Below are positions 7,004 through 60,519 of a stretch of DNA of 64,000 nucleotides, one piece after another. Numbering within the stretch: position 1 is the first letter of the stretch; each line of letters begins with the position of its first letter. The stretch comes from an uncultured Acidobacteriota bacterium (GTDB lineage: Bacteria; Acidobacteriota; UBA6911): contig CAWJKZ010000013.1 of assembly GCA_963843575.1 (NCBI GenBank), positions 224,001 through 288,000 on the forward strand, read 5' to 3'. The notes under the pieces were generated by a model, which had not been told where the DNA came from, did no database searches, and saw only the letters and a list, made by a program, of their open reading frames with translations. A program made the translations under genes and the position numbers.

Positions 7004-8098
7004 ATGCACGTTTCGGAGCTGGATACACCGGCCCTGGTTGTTGACCTCGACATACTGGAGAAGAACATCGCCGAGATGTCGAGCTACTGTTCCGGGCACG
7101 GGATCGCGTTGCGCCCGCACACCAAGACCCACAAGATCCCGGCCATAGCCCGCATGCAGCTGGCCGCCGGCGCCTGCGGCATCACGGTGGCGAAGGTCGG
7201 CGAAGCGGAACTGATGGCGAGCGAGGGTTTCGATGACATCCTCATCGCCTACCCGGTGGTTGGTGCATCGAAGCTCGAGCGGCTCGCGGCCCTGTGCCAG
7301 ATTGCGCGCGTGACGGTCGCCACCGACGCGCTGGAAGTCGCGGAGAGGATCTCCCGCGCGGTTTCCACGGCTGGCGCCCGGATCGGACTGCTCGCCGAAA
7401 TGGACGCGGGCCTGCGCCGGTGCGGCGTGCAGAGCACGGCCGAACTCGTGGCGCTCGCTCAGGGCATCTCCCGGCTGCCCAATGTCACCTTTGCCGGATT
7501 CCTCTGCTTCCCAGGTCACATCCGGGCGAATCCTGCCGACCAGATCCCGATGCTCGAGGCCATCGACGCGCGGCTGCGCGAGGCACAGGAATGCCTGTTC
7601 CGTTCCGGTCTCGAGGTCCGGGTGGTGAGCGGCGGCTCCACGCCGACCGCTTACCGCAGCCACGTGATGAAGACCGTCACCGAGATCCGACCGGGCACCT
7701 ATGTCTACAACGACATGAACACGGTTACCATCGGTGCGATAGGGCTCGACCGTTGCGCCCTGACGGTGCACACCACCGTCGTCAGCACTGCCGTCAAGGG
7801 ACGGATCGTGATCGACGGGGGCTCGAAGACCTTCTCGAGCGATCGACTGCGGGGCGGCGAGGGGCAGGGTTTCGGTTACCTCGTCGGTCACCCCGAAGTG
7901 CAGCTGGAGTCGATGTCCGAAGAGCACGGCCACGTCAACGTCGAAGGCACGACTCACCGTTTCCGGATCGGCGACCGGCTCTGCTTCATTCCCAACCACG
8001 TCTGCACGGCTGTCAACCTGCACAACGAACTCTGGGGCGTGCGGTATGACAGCGTCGTGGAACGCTGGCCGATCGCGGCGCGCGGTCTCGTGCGCTGA
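7004..8098 (+). CDS. PLP-dependent D-threonine aldolase / D-serine dehydratase family (fold type III)
   Basis: LDTPALVVD, LRPHTKTHK (PLP Lys), SGGSTPT, EIRPGTYVYND, SEEHG, IPNHVC. Confidence 0.9.
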   Translation: MHVSELDTPALVVDLDILEKNIAEMSSYCSGHGIALRPHTKTHKIPAIARMQLAAGACGITVAKVGEAELMASEGFDDILIAYPVVGASKLERLAALCQIARVTVATDALEVAERISRAVSTAGARIGLLAEMDAGLRRCGVQSTAELVALAQGISRLPNVTFAGFLCFPGHIRANPADQIPMLEAIDARLREAQECLFRSGLEVRVVSGGSTPTAYRSHVMKTVTEIRPGTYVYNDMNTVTIGAIGLDRCALTVHTTVVSTAVKGRIVIDGGSKTFSSDRLRGGEGQGFGYLVGHPEVQLESMSEEHGHVNVEGTTHRFRIGDRLCFIPNHVCTAVNLHNELWGVRYDSVVERWPIAARGLVR

Positions 8099-8121
8099 CG
8101 GCCCCCACAGGACCGACGTTC

Positions 8122-9021
8122 TCAGCGGGAAGTCGACGCCCTGATCCTCTCCCGGAACTCGGACGACTTGCTGCGGACTTCGCGGATGGACTCGAGCAGG
8201 CTGGGCTCCCTCAAGTCGGCCAATCCGACCGTGTGGAGCTGAGGATTGAGAAAACGCACGATGCGCCGGCCAGTGTTTTGCACGAGCCTGGCCAGCTGCA
8301 AAGCCGTGTCCATAACCGGCGGACCGGCGCCGCGCGGCTCGGCCGCCGCGCTCCCCGCCCGGCTCTTCCCGGGCGCCTTTGGCAGCGCCTGCAGCATGTT
8401 CTCGCCGAGCCGCCGCGCGTACTTGTCCAGTTCCTGGGCATGCTGCGCCGCCGCGGCGGCCGCGCGCGCCTTGAGTTCTGGGCTGATGCCCGGATCCAGG
8501 CCCGCATACGCCAGCGCGGGCAAGTCCGCCCCATAGCGCCCCATCCTTTTCTCGTATTCAAGCGTCTGCTCGGCAAACAGCAGGATGCGCAGCTTCAGGA
8601 AGTACTCGGGATCGCTCTCCCTCCCCACGGGAGCGGGCATTACGGTGTCCTGGGAGCTCTGCATGTGGCCCCGCAACTCCGAGTTGTTCCAGAGGCTGGG
8701 CGGCGGATCCCGGTCGCTCGCGGTCTTCCTGCCCTCCGGAAGCCGCGTCGGGTACACATCGACCTGAAAGGCGGGACGCAGCGGATCGAGCAGGGTCGTG
8801 AGCTTTTCAAACGCCTTTTCGTCCTCGACGACACACCACACCTCGAGACCCTTCTCGTGGAAGACAAACTTGGCGTCCAGATCCTGGCACAATTCCGTCT
8901 CGTGGAACCGGAGCCAGACGCCGACGATCTCCACCGGCACACCCCTCGGGGTGTTCGGAGGAACCGCCGTCGCCGCGGGCCATAGGATGGGGAGGAGCGA
9001 GAAGAGCAATATCCAGGGCAT
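8122..9021 (-). CDS. Hypothetical secreted protein
   Basis: Long ORF with N-terminal hydrophobic signal MPWILLFSLLPILWPAATA; no recognised domain. Confidence 0.65.
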   Translation of the reverse strand: MPWILLFSLLPILWPAATAVPPNTPRGVPVEIVGVWLRFHETELCQDLDAKFVFHEKGLEVWCVVEDEKAFEKLTTLLDPLRPAFQVDVYPTRLPEGRKTASDRDPPPSLWNNSELRGHMQSSQDTVMPAPVGRESDPEYFLKLRILLFAEQTLEYEKRMGRYGADLPALAYAGLDPGISPELKARAAAAAAQHAQELDKYARRLGENMLQALPKAPGKSRAGSAAAEPRGAGPPVMDTALQLARLVQNTGRRIVRFLNPQLHTVGLADLREPSLLESIREVRSKSSEFRERIRASTSR

Positions 9022-47836: not shown

Positions 47837-49216
47837 ATGCAATACCATCTCGAGAATGAGCTGTTTCAGATTGACGTCGGCCGGGAATGGATCGTGTATG
47901 CGCCCTTGAAGCGGATTGCCTTCCGGGCCAATGGACTGCTCGTCAACCTGCTCTGCGACATCCAGGACGGAGTCGCCATAGATCCAGAGAGTTGCGGCGA
48001 AGCTCTCGCGAAGCTGCAGGAATGCGGAGTCCTCGCCGCCACCCACGAAGAGTCCCCGTCCCGCGGCGTGCGTGATCTGTCCGAAGAGCCCTTCCAGCCC
48101 GTCAACCTCACGCTCTTCCTGACATCGGACTGCAACCTCGCGTGCCGGTACTGCTACGGTGACGGCGGAGCCCGGCGCGCCAGCATGCCCATGTCGGTCG
48201 GTTTGGCGGCAATCGACGTTCTCTTTCGGAACGCACGGCGGAAGGGAGCCCACAAGGTCCATCTCGGATTCCACGGGGGCGGAGAACCGACCCTGAGGAT
48301 GGACACCCTGAAGCGGCTGGTCCGGCATGCGCGCAGGCTGGCCCACGAGCACAAGATCGACCTTGCTCTCGGACTCACGTCAAACGGGGTGATGCCCGAA
48401 GAGGCAGCCAGGTGGATCGCGTGCAATATTCATCAACTCAACATCTCGCTCGACGGCCCCGGGGCCATGCAGGATTTCCAGCGGCCCATGAGAAACGGCG
48501 CCGGATCTTCCGAGAGAGTCGCCAGGACCCTTCGGATCCTGGAAGAGCAGGGAACCCCCTATCACCTCCGCGGCACCGTCACCCGTATCTCGGAGGAACG
48601 GATTCCGGAGATCGTGAGTTACCTCACCGGCAAGTTCTCTCCTGCCAGCATCCAGCTGGAACCCATGTTCAGCTCGAGTCGAGCGGAGAAGGCCGGCATT
48701 GGGAAGCCCGATGAGGGCAGCTTTGTGCGGGGGTTTCTTGCGGCGGGGGAGATTGCCAGGAAGAAAGGGATCCGCCTGCATTTTTCCGGCGACAGGTTCC
48801 CCGCGATTTCGAGCCGTTTCTGCAGCATCGGCTGGGAGACCTTTGCCGTTACCCCCGAGGGTCGCGCCACGGCGTGCTTTGAAGTGTTGCGGGAAGAGGA
48901 CTCCCGGTCGAAGATTTTTTTCTTCGGGACGTTCAGCGACGGGCACGGTTTTTCCTTTCAGCCGGACCGGATCCGACACCTGCGCGTCCTGTCCGAGACC
49001 GAGTTGCCCCACTGCCGCGACTGCTTTGCCAAGTTCCACTGCGCGGGCGATTGCCGGGCGAAAGGGCTCTACCCGGACAGCAGGGCGACGGAGGTACAGG
49101 GCACGAGTCGGTGTCGCATAATCCAGGCCCTGACGAAGGCCAGGTTGGTTGAACTCCTGGAGTCGGTGCCGCTGGTCCGACTGGAAAACGCCGGGGAGGC
49201 ACCGAACGAATGCTGA
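47837..49216 (+). CDS. Radical SAM/SPASM peptide maturase 1 (putative N-terminal RRE)
   Basis: CNLACRYC, FHGGGEPT, ISLDG; SPASM CSIG..ACF..CRDCFAKFHCAGDC..C. Confidence 0.92.
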   Translation: MQYHLENELFQIDVGREWIVYAPLKRIAFRANGLLVNLLCDIQDGVAIDPESCGEALAKLQECGVLAATHEESPSRGVRDLSEEPFQPVNLTLFLTSDCNLACRYCYGDGGARRASMPMSVGLAAIDVLFRNARRKGAHKVHLGFHGGGEPTLRMDTLKRLVRHARRLAHEHKIDLALGLTSNGVMPEEAARWIACNIHQLNISLDGPGAMQDFQRPMRNGAGSSERVARTLRILEEQGTPYHLRGTVTRISEERIPEIVSYLTGKFSPASIQLEPMFSSSRAEKAGIGKPDEGSFVRGFLAAGEIARKKGIRLHFSGDRFPAISSRFCSIGWETFAVTPEGRATACFEVLREEDSRSKIFFFGTFSDGHGFSFQPDRIRHLRVLSETELPHCRDCFAKFHCAGDCRAKGLYPDSRATEVQGTSRCRIIQALTKARLVELLESVPLVRLENAGEAPNEC

Positions 49217-49288
49217 AGATTCCTCCGCCGGCACGAGTTGGCGGAGATAAGCCAACCCGCTCCTGGACTCGCACTTTCCCGGGTTAGA

Positions 49289-50698
49289 ATGATGGTTTCG
49301 GATGCACGCTACATCTACGCTATCCCCATCTCGGGGAAGCACCTCGTCTATGCCCCGCTAAAAAAGCTGGCAGCCCTGGTAAATGGGAAGGCCGTTGCCT
49401 CGCTTGGCGGGTGGCTCCGGGATGACGCGGGGGGAAAACAGCCGATTGCCGGGCTGGAGCCTCTGTGCGAAGGGGTGGAGGAGCCTGACGGGTACATGCC
49501 GGAAATGAAGACCGGCCCGATTTCCCCCGCTTTTCTGGGTATCATCCCGTCGCGCTCGTGCAACCTCGCCTGTTCGTACTGCAGTTTCGGGGCTGCGCAC
49601 GCGCCGCGCGAGCAGATGAACCCCCTCGTGGCGGCTTCGGCCGTCGAGTGGATGGCGGAGAATTGTGCGCAGCGCGGGGAAACGAGGCTCGAGGTTCACT
49701 TTTTTGGCGGTGAACCTCTGGTCGCCGCCGACGTCGTCGAGGTTGTCGTCCACAAGGCCCGGGCGATGGCCGAGAAACTCGGGCTGGTCCCGCACCTGGA
49801 GCTCAGTACCAACGGCCTATTCGATCAGGACTGGGCCGGTTTCGTGGGTGACTACTTCGACACGGTCGTGCTTTCGCTGGACGGGCCCGCCGACATCCAC
49901 GACCGGCAAAGGCCGAGGCCGGGAGGCGGGGGTAGCTTCGAGGCGGTCGTCGCCACCGCACGTTGTCTGGCCCAGTCGCAGGCCGAACTCTGTCTGCGCG
50001 GATGCATCAGTTCGGGCAGCGTCGCCCGCATGGAGGAGATCGCGGGCTGGTTTTGCGAAGCCTTCGATCCCAAGGCCGTCAATTTCGAGACGCTGCAACC
50101 CACCGTCCGCTCCGACAGCGCGGGCCTGCGACCGCCCGATCCCTATGAATTTGCCCGGCACTTCATCCGAGCGGAGAAGGTCGCACGGGAGGCGGGAGTC
50201 ACAACGGTCCATGCCTCGGCTGAAATCGGCAAGAACAGATTCAGCTTCTGCCCGGTCGGGACCGACACCCTGGTCGTCTCCCCGGACGGTCGCGTCAGCA
50301 GCTGTTACCTCCCCGAGCGTGAGTGGAAGGCCCGGGGGCTGGATTTCCATGTCGGCAGCGTCGGGCGGCGACGCACGTTCGGCATCGACCTCGAACACAT
50401 CGAAGCGCTGCGCGATTGCGTGACGACCGAGCCGGATCGGTGCGCGCGATGTTTCTGCCGCTGGACCTGCTCCGGGGGGTGCCGCGTCAACCACTCCTAT
50501 CCGGGCTGTTCACGCCATTACGACGACTTCTGCATTCAGACGCGGATCATCACGGCGTGCAGGCTCCTGCTGTCGCTTGGCCTGCCGGACCTCGTCGAGC
50601 CGCTGATCAGCCGTCGCGAAGACATGCAGTTGCTGGCGTTAAAAACCTCGGATCGGCTTGACGCTTGGGAGAACCAGGATGCCGGGCGTGACCTCTGA
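49289..50698 (+). CDS. Radical SAM/SPASM peptide maturase 2 (putative N-terminal RRE)
   Basis: CNLACSYC, FFGGEP, LSLDG; SPASM CPVG..SSCY..CARCFCRWTCSGGC..C; start uncertain (49238-49292). Confidence 0.92.
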   Translation: MMVSDARYIYAIPISGKHLVYAPLKKLAALVNGKAVASLGGWLRDDAGGKQPIAGLEPLCEGVEEPDGYMPEMKTGPISPAFLGIIPSRSCNLACSYCSFGAAHAPREQMNPLVAASAVEWMAENCAQRGETRLEVHFFGGEPLVAADVVEVVVHKARAMAEKLGLVPHLELSTNGLFDQDWAGFVGDYFDTVVLSLDGPADIHDRQRPRPGGGGSFEAVVATARCLAQSQAELCLRGCISSGSVARMEEIAGWFCEAFDPKAVNFETLQPTVRSDSAGLRPPDPYEFARHFIRAEKVAREAGVTTVHASAEIGKNRFSFCPVGTDTLVVSPDGRVSSCYLPEREWKARGLDFHVGSVGRRRTFGIDLEHIEALRDCVTTEPDRCARCFCRWTCSGGCRVNHSYPGCSRHYDDFCIQTRIITACRLLLSLGLPDLVEPLISRREDMQLLALKTSDRLDAWENQDAGRDL

Positions 50699-50978
50699 GC
50701 ACGGGGCGAGCTTTCGTGTCGCTGCGCACGTGAGCTGGGCACCGGAGAGCTGTGGGATCCGTGTCGTCGACAGGCAGACGAACGGGGTCCGCGTTCTCGA
50801 TTACCCACGGGCTGCCGTCTGGGACTGCGTCGCCCGCGGGAGGACCTATGTCCAGGCACTACGATTGCTGTGCGCGCTGTATCCGGTCGACGAGTCCGGC
50901 GCGGAGCGCATGGTCCTGCAATGCCTCTCGGAGTGGATGAAGTGGGGCCTCGTGACACGCGTGAACGAGCATGACTAA
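50679..50978 (+). CDS. Stand-alone PqqD/RRE family protein
   Basis: GGGAG SD; three predicted strands then AAVWD...LCALYPVD....CLSEWMKWGLV helices; overlaps both neighbours. Confidence 0.72.
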   Translation: MPGVTSEHGASFRVAAHVSWAPESCGIRVVDRQTNGVRVLDYPRAAVWDCVARGRTYVQALRLLCALYPVDESGAERMVLQCLSEWMKWGLVTRVNEHD

Positions 50979-52932
50979 CCTCTCCATCGTCGCGGACTGC
51001 AATCTGAATTGCCCGTACTGCTTTTCACGGTCCGCCTACCGCGGGGAGGCTGCCGTGCGCAGTATGCCGGCGCGCCGTTTCGATCTCATGCTGGAAATCC
51101 TGGTTCGGTCGGGACAGGACCGGGTGCGTCTGTTGGGCGGGGAGCCCACGCTTCATGCCGAGTTCCCCTCGCTCGCGGGCCAGGTGGTTGCCCGAGGCCT
51201 CGGTTTGCTCGTCTTTTCAAACGGATCGATCCCCGAATCCTCGCTGCGGGTTCTCGAGGAAATCCCCGGCCTGAGCGTCATGGTCAACATCGCGGCGACC
51301 ATGGGGCAGAACGGCGAGTTGCCGCCGCGCCAGCGCGAGGTACTCGGACGACTGCGCGCCCGTGTGTCCCTGGCTTTCACGATCTGCTCTCCCAACCCGC
51401 CGCTCGATCGCCTGCTGAACCTGGTCGAGGAATACGGGCTGGACAAGAGCGTCTGCCTGGGCCTGGCTCACGCCTGTCTCGCCGGTGGCAACAGGTTCCT
51501 CGATCCCATGCATTATCCGCGCGTGGGCGAGCAGATCGTCCTGTTCGCCCTTCGTGCGCGCCAGGAACGGGTGGCGCTCAATTTCGACTGCGGCTTCGTG
51601 CCCTGCATGTTTCCCTCTGAGAGCCGTGAAGTACTGGGCAAAGCTTTGGAGGAGATCGGAACCCATTGCGGCCCGATCCCCGATATCCTGCCCGATGGGG
51701 ACGCCGTCGCGTGCTATCCGCTTGCCCCTCTCGGCCGGCTGCCCGTCTCGCGCGAAACCACCACCGGAGACCTGAGGAAGGCCTTCGCACCTGTTCTGGA
51801 ACCTTACCGGCAGGTGGGCATATACCGGAAGTGCTCCGCGTGTGACTGGTCGAGAGAGGGAAAGTGCGCGGGAGGCTGTCTGGCCGACGCGATGAGACGT
51901 CTGCGCCAAGGCGGGACGGTATTCCAGGTCCCGGCACCTGCCAGAGACCGGATCACCACCTCTCGCGGCGGCGACCCGACGGCTCCGGACGCCACGGATG
52001 GTTCCGAAACCACAGCACGGGCAAAGTGGGTGGTCCCCTACATCGATCAGCCCCTCTCGTTCTGGGATGAGATCGCTCAGGATTTCCGGGACGACATCAA
52101 GGAAGTCTATTTCCCCCTTCCGGGCGACCTGCTGGGTTCGGGGCGGCCTCCGCAGCCCGCACGGCATCTGGAGGATTTCCTCGCTCGCTCGCTCCTGGGC
52201 CGCTCGGTGCTGATAAACCCCATAACCCTGCCCGGGCCGGTGGGGCAGCTCGCCCCGGCCATAATCGAACGACTTCGCGAACTCACCGGGCGATTTCAGG
52301 TGTCCAGTGTTACCGTCTCGAATCCCGAACTGGCCGAGCGGATCCGCGAGGCTCTCCCCGGCCTCTCGATCACCGCATCCGTCCTGATGGACATCGCTCA
52401 TCCAAGACAGGTCCTGATGCTGCACGGCGTTCTGGATGGACTGGTGCCATCGGGCCGGATCATGCGAAATCTCCCGGCCCTGCGCGAACTCCGCGCGGCT
52501 TTTCGAGGCCGCATCCGGCTGATCGTCAACGAGTCGTGCATTCCGGATTGTCCGTATCGCACACAGCATTTTTACGAGATGGCGCGCTGCCGCGTCGTCC
52601 CTCCGGGGACGCCCTGCGCCGCGTTGCTGGAGAGGACTCCCTGGCTTCGACTCACCGGCACCTGGGTCCTGCCGCAGCACCTGCACTTCTACCGGGGGGT
52701 CTACGACGAGTTGAAACTGGCAGGAAGGGTCACGCTGCGCAACCCCGGCGACTACGTGCGTGTCCTGCGCGCGTACACCCGTGGAGATCCCCTCTCCCCG
52801 CACGAAATCGGCGGAGGTCCGGCATCGGTGCTGGACAAGATGCTTGTCAGCGAGGCTCTTTTTGCCCAGACCCTGAGTTGTTCGAAACAGTGCCACGACT
52901 GTCGGATTTGCCGTGACTACTATGATCGGTAA
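50971..52932 (+). CDS. Radical SAM/SPASM-like domain fused to a U32 'peptidase' family domain
   Basis: CNLNCPYC, LLGGEPT, CGP..ACYP..CSAC...CAGGC; from ~52021 VTVSNP.L, ITASV, IMRNL, LIVNESCIPDCPYR..H, LKLAGR, CSKQCHDCRIC. Confidence 0.85.
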   Translation: MTNLSIVADCNLNCPYCFSRSAYRGEAAVRSMPARRFDLMLEILVRSGQDRVRLLGGEPTLHAEFPSLAGQVVARGLGLLVFSNGSIPESSLRVLEEIPGLSVMVNIAATMGQNGELPPRQREVLGRLRARVSLAFTICSPNPPLDRLLNLVEEYGLDKSVCLGLAHACLAGGNRFLDPMHYPRVGEQIVLFALRARQERVALNFDCGFVPCMFPSESREVLGKALEEIGTHCGPIPDILPDGDAVACYPLAPLGRLPVSRETTTGDLRKAFAPVLEPYRQVGIYRKCSACDWSREGKCAGGCLADAMRRLRQGGTVFQVPAPARDRITTSRGGDPTAPDATDGSETTARAKWVVPYIDQPLSFWDEIAQDFRDDIKEVYFPLPGDLLGSGRPPQPARHLEDFLARSLLGRSVLINPITLPGPVGQLAPAIIERLRELTGRFQVSSVTVSNPELAERIREALPGLSITASVLMDIAHPRQVLMLHGVLDGLVPSGRIMRNLPALRELRAAFRGRIRLIVNESCIPDCPYRTQHFYEMARCRVVPPGTPCAALLERTPWLRLTGTWVLPQHLHFYRGVYDELKLAGRVTLRNPGDYVRVLRAYTRGDPLSPHEIGGGPASVLDKMLVSEALFAQTLSCSKQCHDCRICRDYYDR

Positions 52933-52936
52933 CCCC

Positions 52937-55684
52937 ATGGAAGAGGCGGAGCGGATACACCCGACCCTGCCTATATTCCTGGTGAACGCGGGCGAACGCC
53001 CCGTCATATACACTCCAGGACACCTGGCCGTGATCGGTCACCGGGACGCACACATGCTCCGCCGGGCGTGGGGAAACGGCGAGCCCCCTCCGGACAACTC
53101 GGTTGCCTTCGCCGTTGTCCCGTGGATCGAGATGCGGTCTTGTGAAGCCTGGTCCGAATGGGAGCGGCTGCTGAACGAACCTTTCGCCCCGGAGTGCCTG
53201 ACCATTTATCCGGGGAATCAATGCAACCTTGCCTGCCCATATTGCTACGCGGGGGGCGCGGCCGGCCGGCAAGCGGGCCGCACGATCGCCCCGGCCGCGG
53301 TTGAGTCCGCGGCCCGGCTCGTCGCAAGGAACTGCGCCGACAAGCGCAAGGCATTTCAACTCGTTCTCCACGGCGGGGGCGAGCCGACGCTTCACTGGGA
53401 CCTGGTCGAGAGGATAGTCCTGATCACACGCCGCGTCGCGGACGAGATCGGTGCCGAGTGGCTGGGGTATATCGCGACCAATGGGGTGCTTTCGGAGACC
53501 AGGGCGATCTGGCTCGCGCGGAATTTCACGGTCGGGCTTTCGTGCGACGGTCCACCGGAAATTCAGGACCGGCAACGGCCTCTGGCGGACGGGTCCCCGT
53601 CATCCGGCGTCGTGGAACGCACGGCCCGTCTCGTCGTGGACACCGGTGGGCGCCTCGAGGTGCGCGCGACCATAACGCCGGCTGCGATTCCCCGTCAACG
53701 CGAGATAGTCGAATACCTGCACCACAAGTTGGGAACCCGGCACATGCATTTCGAGCCGCTGTACCGCGCGTGGACGGCTGGGAGCGACGGGGCGTTCTCG
53801 TTGGATGACGTCGAGCCGTTTGCAGAGCACTTCCGCGCCGCCCAGGACGCCGCCAAAAGCCTGGGGGCCGAGCTTTTCCTGTCGGGTGTGCGGGTGCACG
53901 AGATCCACGGCCCGTATTGCGATTTAATCCGGCAGGTGTTGCGGCTCACCCCAGACGGCACCGCCACCGCCTGCTTTCTCGACACCGGCGGCGATGCCGG
54001 ACCGGAACGCGCGTGCAGGATCGGTGCGATGGACGAATCCACCGGCGAGTTCCTCCTGGACCGCGAGAGGATTGCACTGCACCGAATGGCTGTCGGGCGG
54101 ATCCCGCCGGGCTGCCACGGATGCCCGAATGTTTTCCACTGTGCCCGCGACTGCCCCGAGACCTGTTACGCCCGGGCGCAGGACGAACTCGGGTCTGCCG
54201 CTGGGGACGCGCCGGGCGGCCGCCGGGGTGTTCGTTGCCGGATAGCACAGCGCCTGTTCCTTTCGTGGATCCGGGATGCGGCCTTCGGCACCCGCGCATC
54301 GTCCACCGCCGAGTCGCGGGCGCGTTTCTCCACCCACGGGTGGACCACGTTGCTGTCCCAGTTGCAGCGCGCCGCTCCACGCATCGACGCGGACGCGATC
54401 GCTAGGCAATGGAGCGCATTGGGGCGGGGATATCGGGTCGGTGAACGCCGGCCGCCCATGCCGATATGGGCGAAGAGGGGTTTCGAGGACGGGGGGCCCG
54501 AGGCATGGCGCAAATTGGACGCGCAAAACAGCAACGCAACGGAAACCGCCCCTCTCTCGATATATGTACACATTCCCTTCTGCGACCGAAGGTGCGGCTA
54601 TTGCGATTGCCGCTCCGTCCTCATGCCCCGGCGCAATAGAATCGAAGAATCGTCCTACTGTCGTGTCCTGCTGGAGGAAATCGAGGCCTGGTCGAAAAAC
54701 GAACATCTATCCAGGCGGCCAGTGACGACCGTCCACTTCGGCGGCGGCACGCCGAACTATCTCGGCTTCGATCTCTTTGACCGGATCGTCGACGAGCTGC
54801 GGAGGCGTTTCAACACCGTTCGCGAAACGGAGTGGGCGCTCGAAACCACCGGATCGCTCCTGACCCGTGCGCACCTGGCACAGCTGAAGGATGCGGGTTT
54901 CACCCGGCTCCACGTGGGGGTGCAGACGCTGGAAGACGGACTGCGCCGTGCCATTGGGAGACGACAAAGCGGAGCGGGCATACTCGAGGGAATCGCCCTG
55001 GCCATCGAAATGGGTTTCGTGTCGTCGGTCGACGTCATCTACGGTCTCCCGGGCCAGGAACTACCTGGGTTCCTTGACTCCCTGGTGCGGCTCGCCGAGA
55101 GCGGCGCCCAGGGTTTCTCGCTCTACCGGCTGAACGTCTCGGCGCGGAACCTCCGGTTCATTCAGAAACGGATGACGCGGGGACGGGATCCTCTCCACGA
55201 TTACGCCCTTCTGCAGGCCGGTGAACAGCTGTTGCGCGCATCCGGGTACCGGAAGAACCATTTCACGCACTATGCCCTGGCGGCGGACCGGAACTTGTAT
55301 TTCACGCACCCGCAACGCGGGGAAGACCTCCTGGCGCTGGGCGCGAGCGCGGACGGGTTTTTCGGCCACTATCACTACAGGCACATGGATTACAGCGGCT
55401 ACGTCGGCCCCGGGGCCGGGGTTTTTTGCAGTTTGCAGGGGGGATTGCCGGAGACCGAGCGGGAGAAGAGGATTCGACCCGTCACGGCCTCACTGATGGG
55501 AGCCGGCATCAAGGCCGACTTGCTGCGGCGGTTCGGGCTGCAGGACCTGCTCGAGGAATGGAAGGAGTCCGCCCTGCTCGAGCCGGGTTCCGATCCCGGC
55601 ACCTTTGCCCTCACAGCCAACGGCTCGTGGTTTATCGATCGGATGATCGATGACGCGGAGTCTGTCCCGGTTTCCGGGGGCTGA
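52937..55684 (+). CDS. Double radical SAM protein: rSAM/SPASM fused to HemN-like (class C) rSAM
   Basis: CNLACPYC (53222) with CHGCPNVFHCARDC; second domain YVHIPFCDRRCGYC (54581), HFGGGTP, GVQT, DVIYGLPGQ, ALGASA. Confidence 0.9.
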   Translation: MEEAERIHPTLPIFLVNAGERPVIYTPGHLAVIGHRDAHMLRRAWGNGEPPPDNSVAFAVVPWIEMRSCEAWSEWERLLNEPFAPECLTIYPGNQCNLACPYCYAGGAAGRQAGRTIAPAAVESAARLVARNCADKRKAFQLVLHGGGEPTLHWDLVERIVLITRRVADEIGAEWLGYIATNGVLSETRAIWLARNFTVGLSCDGPPEIQDRQRPLADGSPSSGVVERTARLVVDTGGRLEVRATITPAAIPRQREIVEYLHHKLGTRHMHFEPLYRAWTAGSDGAFSLDDVEPFAEHFRAAQDAAKSLGAELFLSGVRVHEIHGPYCDLIRQVLRLTPDGTATACFLDTGGDAGPERACRIGAMDESTGEFLLDRERIALHRMAVGRIPPGCHGCPNVFHCARDCPETCYARAQDELGSAAGDAPGGRRGVRCRIAQRLFLSWIRDAAFGTRASSTAESRARFSTHGWTTLLSQLQRAAPRIDADAIARQWSALGRGYRVGERRPPMPIWAKRGFEDGGPEAWRKLDAQNSNATETAPLSIYVHIPFCDRRCGYCDCRSVLMPRRNRIEESSYCRVLLEEIEAWSKNEHLSRRPVTTVHFGGGTPNYLGFDLFDRIVDELRRRFNTVRETEWALETTGSLLTRAHLAQLKDAGFTRLHVGVQTLEDGLRRAIGRRQSGAGILEGIALAIEMGFVSSVDVIYGLPGQELPGFLDSLVRLAESGAQGFSLYRLNVSARNLRFIQKRMTRGRDPLHDYALLQAGEQLLRASGYRKNHFTHYALAADRNLYFTHPQRGEDLLALGASADGFFGHYHYRHMDYSGYVGPGAGVFCSLQGGLPETEREKRIRPVTASLMGAGIKADLLRRFGLQDLLEEWKESALLEPGSDPGTFALTANGSWFIDRMIDDAESVPVSGG

Positions 55685-55717: not shown

Positions 55718-56878
55718 CTATATCGTTTCGCAGCGCACCCATTTCCCCGGATCCCGGATGGAAAGCGGCGCTGTCCTCGCCAGCCTCACTATCGTGTGCC
55801 CCGGGTGCTTGCGGCGCACTTCCGCGAGTGTATCCGGGTGGAATAAGAAGTAATCCCGCGCATCCCTGAAGGCGCAGCAACTTTCCAGCAATCCCTCGTC
55901 CAGAAATTTCTCGTGCTCGGATTGCACGACGGGCGCGAGGCTGCGGCGCCGGCCTCGCAGCTGCCTCAGCTTGCTCTGCAGCGAGCAGTCGTTTACCGAA
56001 ATGCCCAGTTCGTCGTCCTGGACCCGCCGCATCACCTCAAAGGTCAGAGCACGGCTGTCTCGGGAGATGCTGCCACGGTGGCCGTCCGGGGTGACAAAGT
56101 CCCTCCGGGGCCCGGGCAGCGCGGCCGATCTGCTGCCTGCCTCGAACATCAGTTCGTGGAGGTTCAGGAACCTCACCCCCGCCGCGCTCCAGGGCGCCAG
56201 GCAGCCGAGGAGCTTTTCCGCGTGCTCGGGTATCGCCGGGATCTCCACGGTCACATTGGGAATGAGCGAGCCCGCGGTCGCCAGGTTTCGCATGACGCCC
56301 GGGTGGTCGTACCCGGTGGCGGCCATGTTGAAGCGGATCTCGTCGATGCCGAGTTCTCCCAGATACCGGAGCTTCCCTGCATCGGCGCGGAGTCCGTTCG
56401 TGTAGACCCAGAAATATTTCTCGGGATAGCGGGTCTTGAACCAGGCGACCCAGTCGAACAGCCCCTCCGGGTCCGCCAACGGCTCGCCGCCGGAAAAGCT
56501 GATCCCGGTAATACGGGTGCGGGCGTGATTTCCCGCGATCTGTTCGGGGGTCTCGCCGAATGCCGAACCGCGGTAGTCCTTCCGGAGATCCCGCGGGCTG
56601 CAACAGAAGGGACACTCGAGGTTGCAGCTTGTGCTCGTGAATATGCAGTCCCAGGTGCCTTCTTTGCAGGCCTCGCACCCGGGCGACAGCTCGCCCACGT
56701 GAAGGGTCTCCCCCTGCGCCGCGATCCGAACTCCAGGGATGTCCCTGGCGGCTCCGGCCACCTGTTCGTCCCAGGTCTGCCGAAGATCGTCGAAGCCGGT
56801 TTTATCGTGATTCCGAGAATGCAGCTGCCGCTGCACGGTCTCCAGAAACGGGGGCGAAGTTCTATCCTGGATCGACAT
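55718..56878 (-). CDS. Radical SAM protein without SPASM, with an extra N-terminal CxxC
   Basis: LSPGCEAC..WDC...CNLECPFC, SFSGGEP, YTNG, DEIRFN, VEIPAIP, FLNLHEL. Confidence 0.9.
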   Translation of the reverse strand: MSIQDRTSPPFLETVQRQLHSRNHDKTGFDDLRQTWDEQVAGAARDIPGVRIAAQGETLHVGELSPGCEACKEGTWDCIFTSTSCNLECPFCCSPRDLRKDYRGSAFGETPEQIAGNHARTRITGISFSGGEPLADPEGLFDWVAWFKTRYPEKYFWVYTNGLRADAGKLRYLGELGIDEIRFNMAATGYDHPGVMRNLATAGSLIPNVTVEIPAIPEHAEKLLGCLAPWSAAGVRFLNLHELMFEAGSRSAALPGPRRDFVTPDGHRGSISRDSRALTFEVMRRVQDDELGISVNDCSLQSKLRQLRGRRRSLAPVVQSEHEKFLDEGLLESCCAFRDARDYFLFHPDTLAEVRRKHPGHTIVRLARTAPLSIRDPGKWVRCETI

Positions 56879-56973: not shown

Positions 56974-57408
56974 TCAGGCTGGGTGATTGGACAGAGCGGC
57001 CCGCGCGCCGGTTTTCGCGAGGCTGTAGCAGGGGGTCATGCGGGCGATCTTCAGGTATCCCTGGCTTACCAGTGCCTCGACAAACTCGGTTACGTCGGCG
57101 GCGACAACCTCGTGTCCGAGGCTGAAATGCCGGCAGAGGATTTCCGCCACCCCATGGCAGTTCCTCCTGCCGTCGATCGCGTGCCAGATCGCGGCACCCG
57201 CTTCGTTCAGCGAGATGGACTCGCCCGAGCAGCTGGTGAGCACGGTCTCCCCTGCGACAACGGTGATGCGGACCTTGCCCGCGTGCACCGGCACCGGCGA
57301 TTTCTCCACCGGCAGAGGTCTTTCCCCGGCCGTCGCAGTTCGCGGTGCGGACAAAGCGGATCCGGCGGCGGACATCATTGCTGAAACGATGAAATGTCTG
57401 CGATTCAT
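56974..57408 (-). CDS. PqqD/RRE family protein with twin-arginine signal peptide
   Basis: GAGG SD; MNRRHFIV...ATA signal; LNEAGAAIWHAIDGRR...AEILCRHF...AADVTEFVEALVSQGYL PqqD pattern. Confidence 0.85.
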   Translation of the reverse strand: MNRRHFIVSAMMSAAGSALSAPRTATAGERPLPVEKSPVPVHAGKVRITVVAGETVLTSCSGESISLNEAGAAIWHAIDGRRNCHGVAEILCRHFSLGHEVVAADVTEFVEALVSQGYLKIARMTPCYSLAKTGARAALSNHPA

Positions 57409-57450: not shown

Positions 57451-57777
57451 CTAGTTGGGATACCAGTAATGAGAATCCGACCCGCAACCGACGTACGAAA
57501 CGCACGAGCATTCCGTGTCGCAGGTGCAGACCTGGTTGCAAGTGCAGACCTGGTTGCACGTGCAGGTGGTTTCGCCCACCGCGTGACAGGCGCAGACGGA
57601 GTCACAGCAGCACTGGCCCGAGGCCTCCTGTGCCGGCGTCGGGGCGGCCTGGCGTTTGAACCCCGGTTTCTGATAACTTTCCTGCCCCCCGAGCTTAACC
57701 AGTCGGTAAAGTTGCGGCTCTTCCCCGCCCGGTTCCGGGGTGCGCTTCAGTCGGAACCGATTGTTTTTTTCTTCCAT
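57451..57777 (-). CDS. Cys-rich RiPP-like precursor peptide (108 aa; CxCxxx repeats, HYWYPN terminus)
   Basis: GAAGG SD before ATG 57777; charged Cys-free leader; core CCCDSVCACHAVGETTCTCNQVCTCNQVCTCDTECSCVSYVGCGSDSHYWYPN with 14 Cys. Confidence 0.85.
   Translation of the reverse strand: MEEKNNRFRLKRTPEPGGEEPQLYRLVKLGGQESYQKPGFKRQAAPTPAQEASGQCCCDSVCACHAVGETTCTCNQVCTCNQVCTCDTECSCVSYVGCGSDSHYWYPN
57524..57565. repeat. 18-bp tandem repeat encoding CTCNQV units
   Basis: GTGCAGACCTGGTTGCA-A-GTGCAGACCTGGTTGCA-C-GTGCAG. Confidence 0.9.
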
Positions 57778-57822
57778 GGAATGACCTTCGTATGAATTCC
57801 GTCCGCCGATTGGCGACACGAC

Positions 57823-60519
57823 TCAGTTCAGCGTTCTTACCAGGCGTAACCCCACATAGCCGTAACGGTCGTCGGACCGCTGGTAGCCGTAAGAGTAGCG
57901 ATGGGCCAGGCGCATCAGGTTGGCATCGCCAACATAGGGATTCGCCGAGCCCCCACGCGCCATCCTGTTACTGCTCGCGCCGGATGTCCCGAGATAATCG
58001 GTCACGGTCCCGGATGGATAGTAACCATCCCGATCCCAGCACCACTCCTCGGCGTTGCCGTGGACATCCTTGAGGTTCCAGGCGTTGGCCAGCTTCAGGC
58101 CGACCGGGTGGAGCGAGCCGCCGGAATTAGCGCAGAACCAGGCCACCGACTCCAGGGCCGGCAGCGCGCCTGCGGTGCAGCTGGTCTTCGTGGTGCTGTT
58201 GAATTTGGGCTCCTCGATGTGGAAGGGGCCCGAGCTGCCGGCACGGGCGAAGTACTCCCACTCACCCTCCGAGGGTAACCTGTAGCCGTTGGCGCTGAAG
58301 TTGCAGTAGATCGGATCGGACAGATAATTCGTCGCGTCGATCGGGGTGCGAAAATCGGCGTCCTTGTAGTAGCAACGCGTCAGACCGTTGCGCGCCGAGA
58401 GCAGGTTGGCGAAGAGGATCGCCTCGAACCACTTCACGCCGTCCACGGGCTCGGACATCGAGTGCGAGGTATCCAAAGGGTCGGCAGGGAGCGAGGGTTG
58501 TGCCGACCGCAAGTCCGCCCACATTTGCTGCGTTACCTCGGTCTCCATCACCGCGAAGCTCTTCGACAGGATGTGGGTGAACTGCGCCTCGTAGGAACTG
58601 TGGCCTATCTCCCCGCTGGGCGATCCCTGGGTGAATCCCGCCGACCCCGTGGCCGGGACAAACCGCATGTTGCCCACGATCCCATCAACGCTGTGCAGCC
58701 CTCCTCCCAGCCCTTCGGCGACCTTGACGGCCGTTATCGTCTGGCCCGACCTCGGGCAGTTGGTGGAACTGATCGTCAGGGTGCCCGTCATATGGGTCGA
58801 GTCTGTGAATGAGCCGCTGAAACTCAGGCCGCCCGAGCGCAGGTCGATCCGACTGGCCGATGTCGGGAGGCTGCCGATGGAGATCTTGCAGTTGTTGCAG
58901 TCGGTGGCGGAGACCTTGTAGGTGTGGACGAAATCGCGGATCGAACCGGAACTGTCCACGTTGAACGAAACGTCCGTCCCCTTCCAGCTTCCCCGGGTGG
59001 TCTGCGGGGTGGCGTCCGTCGTCGTGTGTGGCGGCACCCCGGTGTATTGCAGGCCGGTCGCCGTCATTTCCATTCTCAAGACGGTCATGCAGATGTTGGC
59101 CCCCGCCTCGACGGCCAGCGAGCCGACAAAGCCGTCCGGTATGCCGGAAAAAATCCCGCCCGCGCCGCAGAAGAACAGGGCGCTCTGTCCCGTGTATGGA
59201 ATCGTCTGCTGCTGGACCTGATTGCCCGCGGAGTCGTAGAGGGTGAACTTAACCTGAAACCCCGTGCCGGCGTAGGAGACGAAAGCCAGCCCCGTGTTCA
59301 CCATCGCCGATTTCTCGACTGGCAGCGTGAATGACCGGCCTTCGGGACTGTGGGCGATTCCGATCGAGTCGATCAGTTTGTTGCTGAACACATAGTTGTA
59401 GAAGAACGCCGTGGCTATCGAGCCCATCGGACTGCTGTCGCTCTGGATCGCGAGATAGCCGGAACGCACCTGGCTGTCGCCGACAAGGACGTATCTAGCC
59501 GTCGCCTTCGGTCCCAACGAAATGTCGAACGATGACGAACCGGTCATGTTGATGCTGTTCAACGTCCAGCCGCTGGACCAGGACTGGTCGTTCGCCCGGC
59601 GGAGCGTGGCCCGCCCCGCCCATATCGAGCTCGATTCATTCGAAACGATCAGGACCGTCTGGTACTCGCCCCCGAGGGCCAGCTGGGCGTAGGTAAATCG
59701 AGGGTCCGCCGACTGCGCGGCGGGGTGCGGCGGGAAACTCGTGTATTGCACGCCGTCGGGCGTGTTCTCCATGCGCAGGACCGTCATGCACAAGTTCTGG
59801 TCGGACTCGACGACCAGCGAACCGACGAACCCGTCGGCTATGCCCGGGAAGATGCCGCCCCCCGGGCCGGTGAAGAAGCGTGCGCTTTGCCCGTCGTAGT
59901 TGAGCGTCACCTGCTGGACCTGGCGGCCGACCCCGTCGAAGAGCGTGAATTTTATCGGGAAGCCTGTCTTTACGGAGGATACGTAAGCCAGCCCGGTGTT
60001 CACGCTGGCCGATTTCTCGGCCGCGAACGTGAATGCGCGGCCTTCATAGCTCGGGGGCACCCCGATCGAGTCGATCAGCTGATTCCCGACGATGTAATTG
60101 TAGAAAAATGCCGTGGCGATGTTGTTAATCGACGTGCTGCTCTGGATCGTCAAGTATCCGGAACGGGTGGTGTCGTCGCCGGCGAGGACGAACTTGCGGG
60201 TCGCCTTTGGGCCGAGCGAAATATCGAACGACGTTGAGCCCGTCTTCGCCGCGCCGTTCAGGGTCCATGCGGATGTCCACGACTGATCGTTTCCCTTTCG
60301 GAGGTTGGCCGTGCCGGACCAGGCCGTGCTCGACTCGTTGGAAACGACAAGGACGGTCTGGTACGACCCTCCCAGCGCCAGTTGGGCGTAGGTCAGACCG
60401 GCAGAAGTCTGGGCCTGATTGGTGTCGATCGCAAGACAAGCCAGTAGAATGGCGGACAGAATCCCCAGCGCTCTATATGCCACGGTACTCCTTTCCAGCC
60501 AGCGGACCGCAGCCATCAC
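57823..60519 (-). CDS. Secreted protein with two ~230-aa repeats and a C-terminal FGE-sulfatase (SUMF1-like) domain
   Basis: Signal peptide; duplicated TYAQLALGG...LRME domain; ETEVTQ, YRLPSEGEWEYFARAG, DVHGNAEEWCWD, RGGS, GLRLVR. Confidence 0.9.
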   Translation of the reverse strand: MMAAVRWLERSTVAYRALGILSAILLACLAIDTNQAQTSAGLTYAQLALGGSYQTVLVVSNESSTAWSGTANLRKGNDQSWTSAWTLNGAAKTGSTSFDISLGPKATRKFVLAGDDTTRSGYLTIQSSTSINNIATAFFYNYIVGNQLIDSIGVPPSYEGRAFTFAAEKSASVNTGLAYVSSVKTGFPIKFTLFDGVGRQVQQVTLNYDGQSARFFTGPGGGIFPGIADGFVGSLVVESDQNLCMTVLRMENTPDGVQYTSFPPHPAAQSADPRFTYAQLALGGEYQTVLIVSNESSSIWAGRATLRRANDQSWSSGWTLNSINMTGSSSFDISLGPKATARYVLVGDSQVRSGYLAIQSDSSPMGSIATAFFYNYVFSNKLIDSIGIAHSPEGRSFTLPVEKSAMVNTGLAFVSYAGTGFQVKFTLYDSAGNQVQQQTIPYTGQSALFFCGAGGIFSGIPDGFVGSLAVEAGANICMTVLRMEMTATGLQYTGVPPHTTTDATPQTTRGSWKGTDVSFNVDSSGSIRDFVHTYKVSATDCNNCKISIGSLPTSASRIDLRSGGLSFSGSFTDSTHMTGTLTISSTNCPRSGQTITAVKVAEGLGGGLHSVDGIVGNMRFVPATGSAGFTQGSPSGEIGHSSYEAQFTHILSKSFAVMETEVTQQMWADLRSAQPSLPADPLDTSHSMSEPVDGVKWFEAILFANLLSARNGLTRCYYKDADFRTPIDATNYLSDPIYCNFSANGYRLPSEGEWEYFARAGSSGPFHIEEPKFNSTTKTSCTAGALPALESVAWFCANSGGSLHPVGLKLANAWNLKDVHGNAEEWCWDRDGYYPSGTVTDYLGTSGASSNRMARGGSANPYVGDANLMRLAHRYSYGYQRSDDRYGYVGLRLVRTLN

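Follow-up and report, generated by a model that had tools for sequence, protein, structure and literature searches.

A radical-SAM/SPASM enzyme carrying a divergent U32-type barrel, in a conserved and apparently undescribed peptide-maturation cassette

The U32 family comprises twelve subfamilies, most of them uncharacterised according to the available text of PMC10990095 and PMC5727448; the known roles given there are the anaerobic hydroxylation of quinone precursors and of RNA. UbiU/UbiV (ubiquinone), RlhA (ho5C2501 of 23S rRNA) and TrhP (ho5U34 of tRNA) are iron-sulfur (Fe-S) proteins tied to O2-independent, prephenate-dependent hydroxylation (accessible parts of PMC10990095 and PMC5727448). 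In UbiU/UbiV the four canonical Cys bind a [4Fe-4S] cluster (accessible part of PMC10990095). The present analysis deals with one open reading frame (ORF), the target, located in a 64,000-nucleotide stretch of DNA of an uncultured Acidobacteriota bacterium (contig CAWJKZ010000013.1, positions 224,001 to 288,000, i.e., the window). The target joins a radical S-adenosylmethionine (radical-SAM) module of the SPASM type to a C-terminal domain which an earlier note, made from the sequence, had called U32-family. That note had also described UbiU/UbiV, RlhA and TrhP as Fe-S proteins for O2-independent hydroxylation, in agreement with the two sources cited above.

The target shares with UbiU/UbiV, RlhA and TrhP the U32 fold type, i.e., a triosephosphate isomerase (TIM) barrel, as well as colinear barrel motifs and a K-x-x-G-R motif on strand 8. 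It is also rich in Cys, occurs in anaerobes and has a candidate aromatic substrate at hand. It differs from these proteins in that: (i) it remains below the Pfam cut-off and lacks their CX6CX15CX3C; (ii) it has CX3C...C...CX3CX2CX2C and a C-terminal extension specific to its family; (iii) it is paired with a radical-SAM enzyme that modifies peptides, and no link with prephenate was seen; (iv) its presumed substrate is a protein tail, whereas theirs is a quinone precursor or an RNA. The best structural match is Mk0906 of Methanopyrus kandleri (5d88), a minimal U32 protein and the only U32 protein solved. Mk0906 has no counterpart to the last 60 residues of the target, which carry the four-Cys cluster motif.

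Another described system is that of QhpC, QhpD and QhpG. QhpD makes three Cys-to-Asp/Glu thioethers in QhpC, and QhpG requires the ternary complex QhpC-QhpD-QhpG for the dihydroxylation of a Trp in thioether-caged QhpC (accessible part of PMC7876137). The present locus has in common with it a Cys-rich polypeptide, a SPASM cross-linker and a putative aromatic hydroxylase, and the target fusion would be such a complex made covalent. QhpG is an O2-using flavoprotein, whereas the corresponding module of the target is predicted to be an Fe-S barrel of the U32-like type. Neither the tails found here nor their C-terminal motif are related to QhpC. Moreover, no dedicated protease, ATP-binding cassette (ABC) exporter or flavoprotein is recurrent in the 80 loci compared (one genome per species was scanned, giving 108 relatives of which the best 80 loci were kept). 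The resemblance to the maturation of quinohemoprotein amine dehydrogenase would be one of logic only, and the cut-off of the QhpD model is not reached.

Ranthipeptide/SCIFF systems (PapB, ScfB) and the pyrroloquinoline quinone (PQQ) system (PqqE with PqqD) also combine a SPASM enzyme and a PqqD-type leader binder, either fused or separate, acting on Cys-rich or Tyr-containing peptides. Each works with a single radical-SAM enzyme and is not known to include a U32-like or a HemN-like module. Neither the target nor its neighbours reach an equivalog cut-off of the SCIFF/ranthipeptide maturases, and many of the substrates found here are entire WD40 proteins that are exported. Neither the domain nor the precursor nor the system as such is named by any model of NCBIfam or Pfam. 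In the full texts searched, which include few papers of subscription journals, no paper was found that links U32 proteins with radical-SAM peptide maturation, nor one that holds the tail motif (YWYPN, HYWYP or YWYPT) in a relevant context. The system, apparently undescribed and widespread among oxygen-avoiding bacteria, can be filed as a radical-SAM maturation system of the type of ribosomally synthesised, post-translationally modified peptides (RiPPs), with a U32-superfamily module.

The architecture of the target, its fold, its conservation and its coupling both to a gene cassette and to a characteristic protein tail are held with high confidence. Fe-S binding, an aromatic target and hydroxylation, taken together, are proposed tentatively. 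Overall, the target may be a two-module maturase of a multi-radical-SAM system, the U32-like module of which would oxidise an aromatic residue of the tail without O2; this reading is plausible but falls somewhat short of an even chance.

The reading frame is uninterrupted and contains all the elements listed in the earlier note, i.e., the radical-SAM motif, SPASM-like Cys, the linker, NESCIPDCPYR, LKLAGR and the terminal Cys motif. It must be kept in mind that the DNA of the window has about 65% G+C and that an antisense ORF of 598 aa is open at 51217..53013 (-); therefore the length of an ORF is by itself no proof of a gene. The C-terminal 313 residues match 216 proteins of 359-1143 aa (E <= 0.001), with 51-75% identity over the C-terminal part for the best 120 of these 216, and thus the + strand is the coding one. 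The start ATG of the target lies within an 8-nt overlap with the end of the PqqD-like ORF upstream, stop codon included, and its 3' end is overlapped by the start of the downstream radical-SAM/HemN-like gene, which suggests a translationally coupled operon. In the full-length AlphaFold2 model (mean predicted local distance difference test, pLDDT, 87.1) the linker residues 313-347 are disordered (pLDDT < 50), and the predicted template modelling score (pTM) of the whole protein is 0.51 though each domain folds confidently. The two modules would thus resemble beads on a string, with no fixed contact predicted between them.

The same fusion, or split pairs, could be recovered from other genomes. 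Across the 80 loci, which span 14 phylum-level groups, the radical-SAM module and the U32-like domain are in one frame in 32 cases and the domain is a gene of its own in 36, often directly 3' of a radical-SAM gene; of the other loci, 10 are ambiguous and 2 run into a contig end. On a quick maximum-likelihood tree of 81 domains, many branches of which are weakly supported, at least 8 changes between fused and separate states are counted. In five loci (L032, L044, L056, L059 and L062) the opposite flank of the domain is joined to a HemN-like radical-SAM domain, either with the N-terminal radical-SAM module (L032, L059) or without it (L056, L062). L044 is a single open frame of 1594 aa which holds the whole set, and representatives of 1563 and 1577 aa are arranged alike.

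The C-terminal domain was modelled with AlphaFold2 from 32 sequences (pLDDT 90.7, pTM 0.90). The top Foldseek match of this model is the U32 peptidase Mk0906 (5d88), with an E value of 2.9e-8 (next match 1.1e-5). VIA-align superposes 220 of 247 residues on Mk0906 with Z 17.1, a root-mean-square deviation of 3.2 and 15% identity (next Z 12.2). An independent pass over 48,161 PDB representatives gives again Mk0906 at the top (Z 17.1; next Z 12.3). By this model, the C-terminal domain has a U32-type TIM-barrel fold.

At the sequence level, PF01136 is the sole Pfam family matched by close relatives of the target (16/32 at E <= 0.1, best 1.5e-6). When 1.84 billion representatives are searched with the family profile, 1483 proteins match at E <= 0.001, of which 594 also match at E <= 1e-10 and 73 at E <= 1e-30. 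Among these is a second tier of proteins of 320-350 aa, at E values from 1e-39 to 1e-20, which share the seven-Cys pattern of the family. PF01136 matches 31 of the 34 second-tier proteins scanned at E <= 0.01, with 27/34 above the cut-off, and some of them match the TrhP and UbiU models weakly. The link to U32 thus passes through intermediate sequences. Canonical U32 proteins of the same phylum (14-15 sequences, picked by an ExFxHGALC-type PROSITE signature seen in 15 canonical ORFs) align colinearly with the family in hhalign over 247 columns. The paired elements are EVYF/DAVY, the Asn that follows strand 3, TVSN/IvqD, TASxLM/HxSTQ, VRDLP/ARELS and KLAGR/KIEGR; the Glu of KIEGR is replaced by Ala in the target. 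The C-terminal domain is read as a distinct branch of the U32 superfamily, probably with a metal-site layout of its own.

Several observations on relatives of the domain may be mentioned at this point. Canonical U32 proteins are patchy in the phylum (16/151 genomes at E <= 1e-20), and no canonical U32 (PF01136) protein was found in the genome of the window, which is 88% complete. Among the nearest ESM Atlas clusters of 51991-52929, one (score 0.94, PF01136 on 28% of its members) bears a label of 65% viral, from Uroviricota; no match to the domain is given by tblastn in a set of 50,697 phage records. The proteins P0317, P0321, P0330, P0064, P0069 and P0350 represent other architectures of the short U32-like branch, namely fusions to TPR repeats and one protein in reversed order, i.e., the U32-like domain first and then a radical-SAM domain. 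L113 (genome G012) encodes at 7051-8127 (-) a short, Pfam-positive U32-like protein with the same seven-Cys pattern (E 1.7e-34 to the family profile). It adjoins an FkbM-type methyltransferase, a ferredoxin with a twin-arginine translocation (Tat) signal and an aldehyde:ferredoxin oxidoreductase; a pairing of hydroxylase and O-methyltransferase is conceivable there. This neighbourhood is not a RiPP cluster, and gives no support to the idea that every short U32-like protein acts on peptides.

The conservation of residues was analysed on 240 relatives, i.e., 120 of fused length and 120 short ones. C523, C527, C549 and C637 are present in 240/240, C641 in 238/240, and C644 and C647 each in 239/239 covering rows. 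The layout of the family thus consists of VNE[SAG]Cx3C, a single Cys after it and CX3CX2CX2C at the terminus. The residues N416, S470, N520, E521, R530, H533, K582, G585 and R586 are also kept in 240/240, and the invariant polar residues are placed by the model at the C-terminal ends of the barrel strands, where the active sites of TIM barrels lie. In canonical U32 proteins (14 sequences) the invariant Cys are C169, C176, C192 and C196, within ExFxHGALC-x6-C...C-x3-C; hhalign sets VNE[SAG]C-x3-C of the target family opposite the CxQxCR pair. The terminal four-Cys motif is borne by a 60-residue extension which is absent from Mk0906 (only model residues 8-250 are aligned). The seven invariant Cys may bind one or two Fe-S clusters, and would suit one four-Cys plus one three-Cys site. 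The U32-like domain is the best-conserved part of the cassette (median identity 52% vs. 31-43% for the other parts), in a comparison biased by the choice of the loci through this very domain. The radical-SAM motif usually has an aromatic residue before its third Cys. The terminal CX3CX2C has none and is located outside the barrel core; its reading as a second radical-SAM site was provisionally set aside.

The presumed substrates are recognised by a Cys-rich end and an xYWxPx C-terminus. Such ORFs occur in 61/80 loci; the remaining 19 loci have no tail-bearing ORF, 10 of them being shorter than 12 kb. The loose pattern gives 91 tail ORFs and the stricter one 88. HYWYPN is the commonest ending (31 ORFs). 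In the tails that were aligned, Y, W and P are invariant (40/40) and the CxC pairs show a periodicity of six. Several loci have 2-4 precursors, and 49 of the 91 ORFs are WD40-like. A twin-arginine motif RRxF is found in 68 of the 88-91 tail ORFs. It is preceded in 55 ORFs by a leader motif [DE]-P-x-[VIL]-[YF], with a spacing of exactly 18 residues in 43 of these 55; because of this fixed distance, a PqqD-like chaperone bound at EPxVY could mask the Tat signal until maturation is complete. The precursor of the window is of the short form (leader plus tail), i.e., without twin arginine and without WD40 domain, and has 14 Cys in its last 60 residues. It is the sole such ORF in the 6.7-Mb genome (88% complete). 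The RiPP setting supposed in the earlier note is borne out by a RiPP-like radical-SAM cluster with a Cys-rich substrate.

The tail and the domain occur together at the genome level. Across 401 sampled genomes of the phylum of the window, the domain is found in 5 (E <= 1e-30). A 34-position tail profile has strong matches (E <= 5.8e-9) in exactly the same 5 genomes, on the same contigs as the domain and about 1.4 to 6.4 kb from it. Weak and partial tail matches are seen in 4 other genomes (E 0.0016-0.0088), none of which reaches the last profile position. In a second lineage, i.e., the class of the genome of L036 (251 genomes), the domain is found in 4 genomes and tails (E <= 1e-5) in 3 of these 4; in the fourth genome the domain stands at a contig end. 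The cassette is dedicated to Cys-repeat tails ending in xYWxPx-COOH, which it presumably modifies. The likely target is the invariant Tyr-Trp of this end, often on whole exported WD40 proteins.

The N-terminal module matches PF04055 (Radical_SAM) with 45.4 bits for a cut-off of 29.5, and has the CX3CX2C motif. The auxiliary Cys 207, 212, 233, 248, 288, 291, 299 and 303 are invariant in 40 fused homologues, and this pattern of eight suits the two auxiliary clusters of a SPASM domain. The best Foldseek match is ChlB (9gmc_C, E 4.8e-8), further matches being SuiB (5v1q_B), anSMEcpe (4k37_A), CteB (5why_A), SkfB and PqqE. By its Cys set and its modelled fold the module belongs to the SPASM subgroup; the Pfam model for SPASM (PF13186) gives no match to the target protein. 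No NCBIfam family reaches its cut-off on the target: the best is MoaA (35.9 bits vs. 284), and the SCIFF maturase model TIGR03974 and NF047865 give 24.3 and 26.6 bits, respectively, for cut-offs of 425 and 340. The QhpD model TIGR03906 is absent from the best 25 of the 27 NCBIfam matches of the target. There is no RiPP recognition element inside the target protein; since the module begins directly at the CxxxCxxC motif, there is no room in it for a domain that would bind a leader.

The target belongs as a module to a conserved cassette, which comprises 4-6 radical-SAM domains together with two PqqD-like proteins (Table 1). The bacteria that have this cassette represent at least 14 phylum-level groups; most are uncultured, and many come from lineages known as anaerobes. 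With the neighbours of the window as tblastn queries, among which the radical-SAM ones may cross-match paralogues, the radical-SAM module of the target is found in 71/80 loci, and the SPASM and HemN-like parts of the downstream gene in 75/80 and 53/80, respectively. BLAST clustering of the 1141 ORFs (70 aa or more) of the 80 loci gives as recurrent families the radical-SAM proteins (79 loci), WD40 proteins (45 loci), two PqqD-like families (39 and 37 loci) and the sixth radical-SAM protein (22 loci). The PqqD-like family found in 37 loci is that of the upstream ORF (about 97 aa), and the second one is found in 39/80. The upstream ORF matches PF05402 with 20.8 bits, i.e., below the cut-off of 23.4; a homologue stands at the same place in 31/80 loci, and this protein is a probable leader-binding partner of the target. 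The best NCBIfam matches of the neighbouring maturases are the SCIFF maturase and PapB; the neighbours score 123.6 and 117.2 bits with the SCIFF maturase model (cut-off 425), and maturases A and B score 82.0 and 83.6 bits with the QhpD model TIGR03906 (cut-off 453). A protease, an exporter, a chorismate mutase and a flavoprotein were sought: no family beyond the core is found in more than 6/80 loci, and thus none of the four is conserved.

Table 1. Position of the target, of its sub-features and of the neighbouring genes in the window
Feature	Position (nt)	Strand	Basis
Whole ORF, radical-SAM/SPASM + linker + U32-like domain	50971..52932	+	653 aa, homologues
Radical-SAM/SPASM peptide-maturase domain (residues 1-312)	50971..51906	+	PF04055, Foldseek
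CNLNCPYC (residues 10-17), CxxxCxxC radical-SAM cluster motif C10/C14/C17	50998..51021	+	At least 90% conserved, 40 fused homologues
SPASM-type auxiliary-cluster region, 8 invariant Cys	51589..51879	+	40 fused homologues
Flexible P/T/G/A/D-rich linker (residues 313-347)	51907..52011	+	pLDDT < 50
Divergent U32-type TIM-barrel domain (residues 352-653)	52024..52929	+	AlphaFold2 model, Mk0906 match
C523-x3-C527 after barrel strand 7 (VNESCIPDC)	52537..52551	+	240/240 relatives
Invariant C549	52615..52617	+	240/240 relatives
K582-L-A-G-R586, counterpart of U32 K-I-E-G-R, strand 8	52714..52728	+	K, G, R each 240/240
Terminal C637-x3-C641-x2-C644-x2-C647 (CSKQCHDCRIC)	52879..52911	+	238-240/240
Radical-SAM/SPASM maturase A	47837..49216	+	76/80 loci
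Radical-SAM/SPASM maturase B	49238..50698	+	75/80 loci
PqqD-like small protein, coupled to target	50658..50978	+	PF05402 E 4.9e-4
Radical-SAM/SPASM + HemN/HutW-like class-C radical-SAM fusion	52913..55684	+	TIGR04107 164.2 bits vs 400 cut-off
Sixth radical-SAM protein, no SPASM match	55718..56878	-	23/80 loci
PqqD-family protein, twin-arginine-like N-terminus (MNRRHFIV...)	56974..57408	-	PF05402 46.8 bits
Precursor, leader EEPQLY, C-terminus HYWYPN	57451..57819	-	ORF pattern search

The following mechanism is proposed. The PqqD-like partner would bind the EPxVY leader; module 1 (radical-SAM/SPASM), having no leader binder of its own, most likely borrows the translationally coupled upstream PqqD-like protein. 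Module 1 would abstract a hydrogen atom from the tail, leading to a cross-link as in the case of its structural neighbours, and the radical-SAM modules may cross-link the CxC repeats of the tail. The NxxC and DxxC spacings in the tail repeats are reminiscent of ranthipeptide thioethers. Module 2, i.e., the U32-like barrel tethered by the flexible 35-residue linker, would bind Fe-S by its seven Cys and would oxidise, most likely hydroxylate, the invariant Tyr or Trp at the tail end in an O2-independent manner. The radical-SAM module would hold the substrate meanwhile, in the way QhpG acts only in a ternary complex with QhpD. HemN-like class-C radical-SAM enzymes methylate aromatic carbons, and therefore the HemN-like fusion would fit a tailoring of the ring, by analogy only. 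Hydroxylation of an aromatic residue by the U32-like domain is a candidate function to be held with reserve; we infer it purely from a distant kinship, with an identity to Mk0906 of about 15% and a probability in hhalign of 21-29%.

Several results weigh against this proposal. According to the accessible part of PMC10990095, direct hydroxylase activity was not demonstrated for any U32 protein, and none in vitro. C169 and C176 are essential in RlhA (accessible part of PMC5727448), and the canonical four-Cys motif of U32 is not present in the target family. PF01136 gives 14.7 bits on the target for a cut-off of 22.4 (E 0.019, domain residues 101-144 only); no NCBIfam family is found on the C-terminal domain at E <= 10, and a search of PDB sequences with the family profile gives no match at E <= 10. 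The hhalign statistics are modest (E 9e-4 to 1e-4, for the probability given above). The label of U32-family given in the earlier note, examined by the Pfam and Foldseek comparison of the C-terminal 300 aa suggested with it, is thus upheld by the fold (5d88 as top Foldseek match) and by the chain of profiles, but not by the Pfam threshold. No contact is predicted between the radical-SAM and U32-like domains (pTM 0.51). No prephenate-related gene recurs in the 80 loci (none in more than 6). Moreover, since the second-tier protein of L113 stands in a non-RiPP context, the chemistry of the subfamily need not concern peptides. Finally, the tail residue on which the domain acts, if any, is one that we infer.

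Other roles of the U32-like domain have to be weighed. It may be catalytic but carry out on the tail an Fe-S chemistry other than hydroxylation, e.g., dehydrogenation, C-S or C-C coupling or C-terminal decarboxylation, at an open iron site made by its own Cys set. The replacement of the canonical Cys motif by CX3C...C...CX3CX2CX2C, which is kept in the second tier, would agree with it, as would a distribution of the seven Cys over a four-Cys and a three-Cys site, the remoteness from the hydroxylase subfamilies and the invariant polar residues at the ends of the barrel strands. Nevertheless, every U32 subfamily with an assigned role is tied to aromatic hydroxylation (accessible part of PMC10990095), the tail offers an invariant Tyr-Trp, and 4-6 radical-SAM domains are already present in the cassette for cross-links; such an alternative chemistry is only slightly less likely than hydroxylation. 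That the domain performs no chemistry on the substrate, and is either an Fe-S electron relay or a docking scaffold for the Cys-rich tail, is distinctly unlikely. Electron transfer has indeed been proposed for U32 clusters (accessible part of PMC10990095), two distinct radical-SAM partners alternate in the fusions of the domain and no inter-domain contact is predicted, but a mere relay would rarely keep a median identity of 52% across 14 phylum-level groups. The domain is the most conserved part of the cassette, and its invariant polar residues lie at the active-site ends of the strands.

A peptidase which removes the leader or trims the tail is highly unlikely. U32 'peptidases' have no known catalytic mechanism, and the characterised members are not proteases (accessible parts of PMC10990095 and PMC5727448); besides, the Tat signal of 68 of the 88-91 substrate ORFs would be removed by the export machinery, and seven invariant Cys point to metal clusters. 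All this has to be set against the collagenase activity reported for some U32 proteins (accessible part of PMC5727448), the label 'collagenase-like PrtC family protease' given to relatives by some sources, and the fact that no other protease recurs in the 80 loci. It may also be asked whether the fusion is an artefact of assembly or a frameshift joining two separate genes, since the domain is a separate gene in 36/80 loci. The best public sequencing run holds 18% of the sampled words of the 64-kb stretch, and contigs of four public runs at 85% likeness leave nt 51823-51964 uncovered; the linker is thus not spanned by any public run. The identical fusion is found, on the contrary, in 32/80 independent loci from many phyla, more than 100 relatives of 590-790 aa are among the matches listed, and the other 4 genomes of the phylum which hold the domain all have open frames of 678-724 aa; an artefact has thus a negligible chance.

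Returning to the proposal of an O2-independent oxidation of the tail, the tethered radical-SAM/U32-like pair could further be the anaerobic counterpart of QhpD-QhpG. In this extended form, thioether caging of the Cys-repeat tail by the SPASM modules, hydroxylation of the invariant Tyr/Trp by the U32-like barrel with oxygen transfer of the prephenate type, and C-methylation of the ring by the HemN-like module would lead to a protein-derived quinone or catechol cofactor on Tat-exported WD40 propellers. Such a scheme is speculative and very unlikely; if true, a cofactor of this kind would for the first time be reached without O2, and U32 would have its first protein substrate. More generally, a U32 branch hard-wired to peptide-modifying radical-SAM enzymes would give the U32 family a protein substrate. 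Because the presumed target is a short invariant Tyr-Trp tail, it would also provide a compact and tractable assay for a chemistry not yet reconstituted in vitro. Should the modified tail turn out to be redox-active or to bind metal, it would represent an unrecognised class of protein-derived cofactor. The present analysis adds that of the U32-like module itself, the PF01136 profile chain, the altered Cys set, the census of fusions and the co-occurrence at the genome level.

A last observation concerns the gene at 57823-60519 (-), which shares the strand of the precursor and lies directly upstream of it. It encodes a protein of 898 aa in which a stretch of about 280 aa is repeated internally, in two copies, and the C-terminal domain is of the FGE-sulfatase (SUMF1-like) type (PF03781, 95.7 bits). 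Since homologues of this FGE-sulfatase-type protein are found in 2/80 loci (L006 and L019), it is probably located outside the core system.

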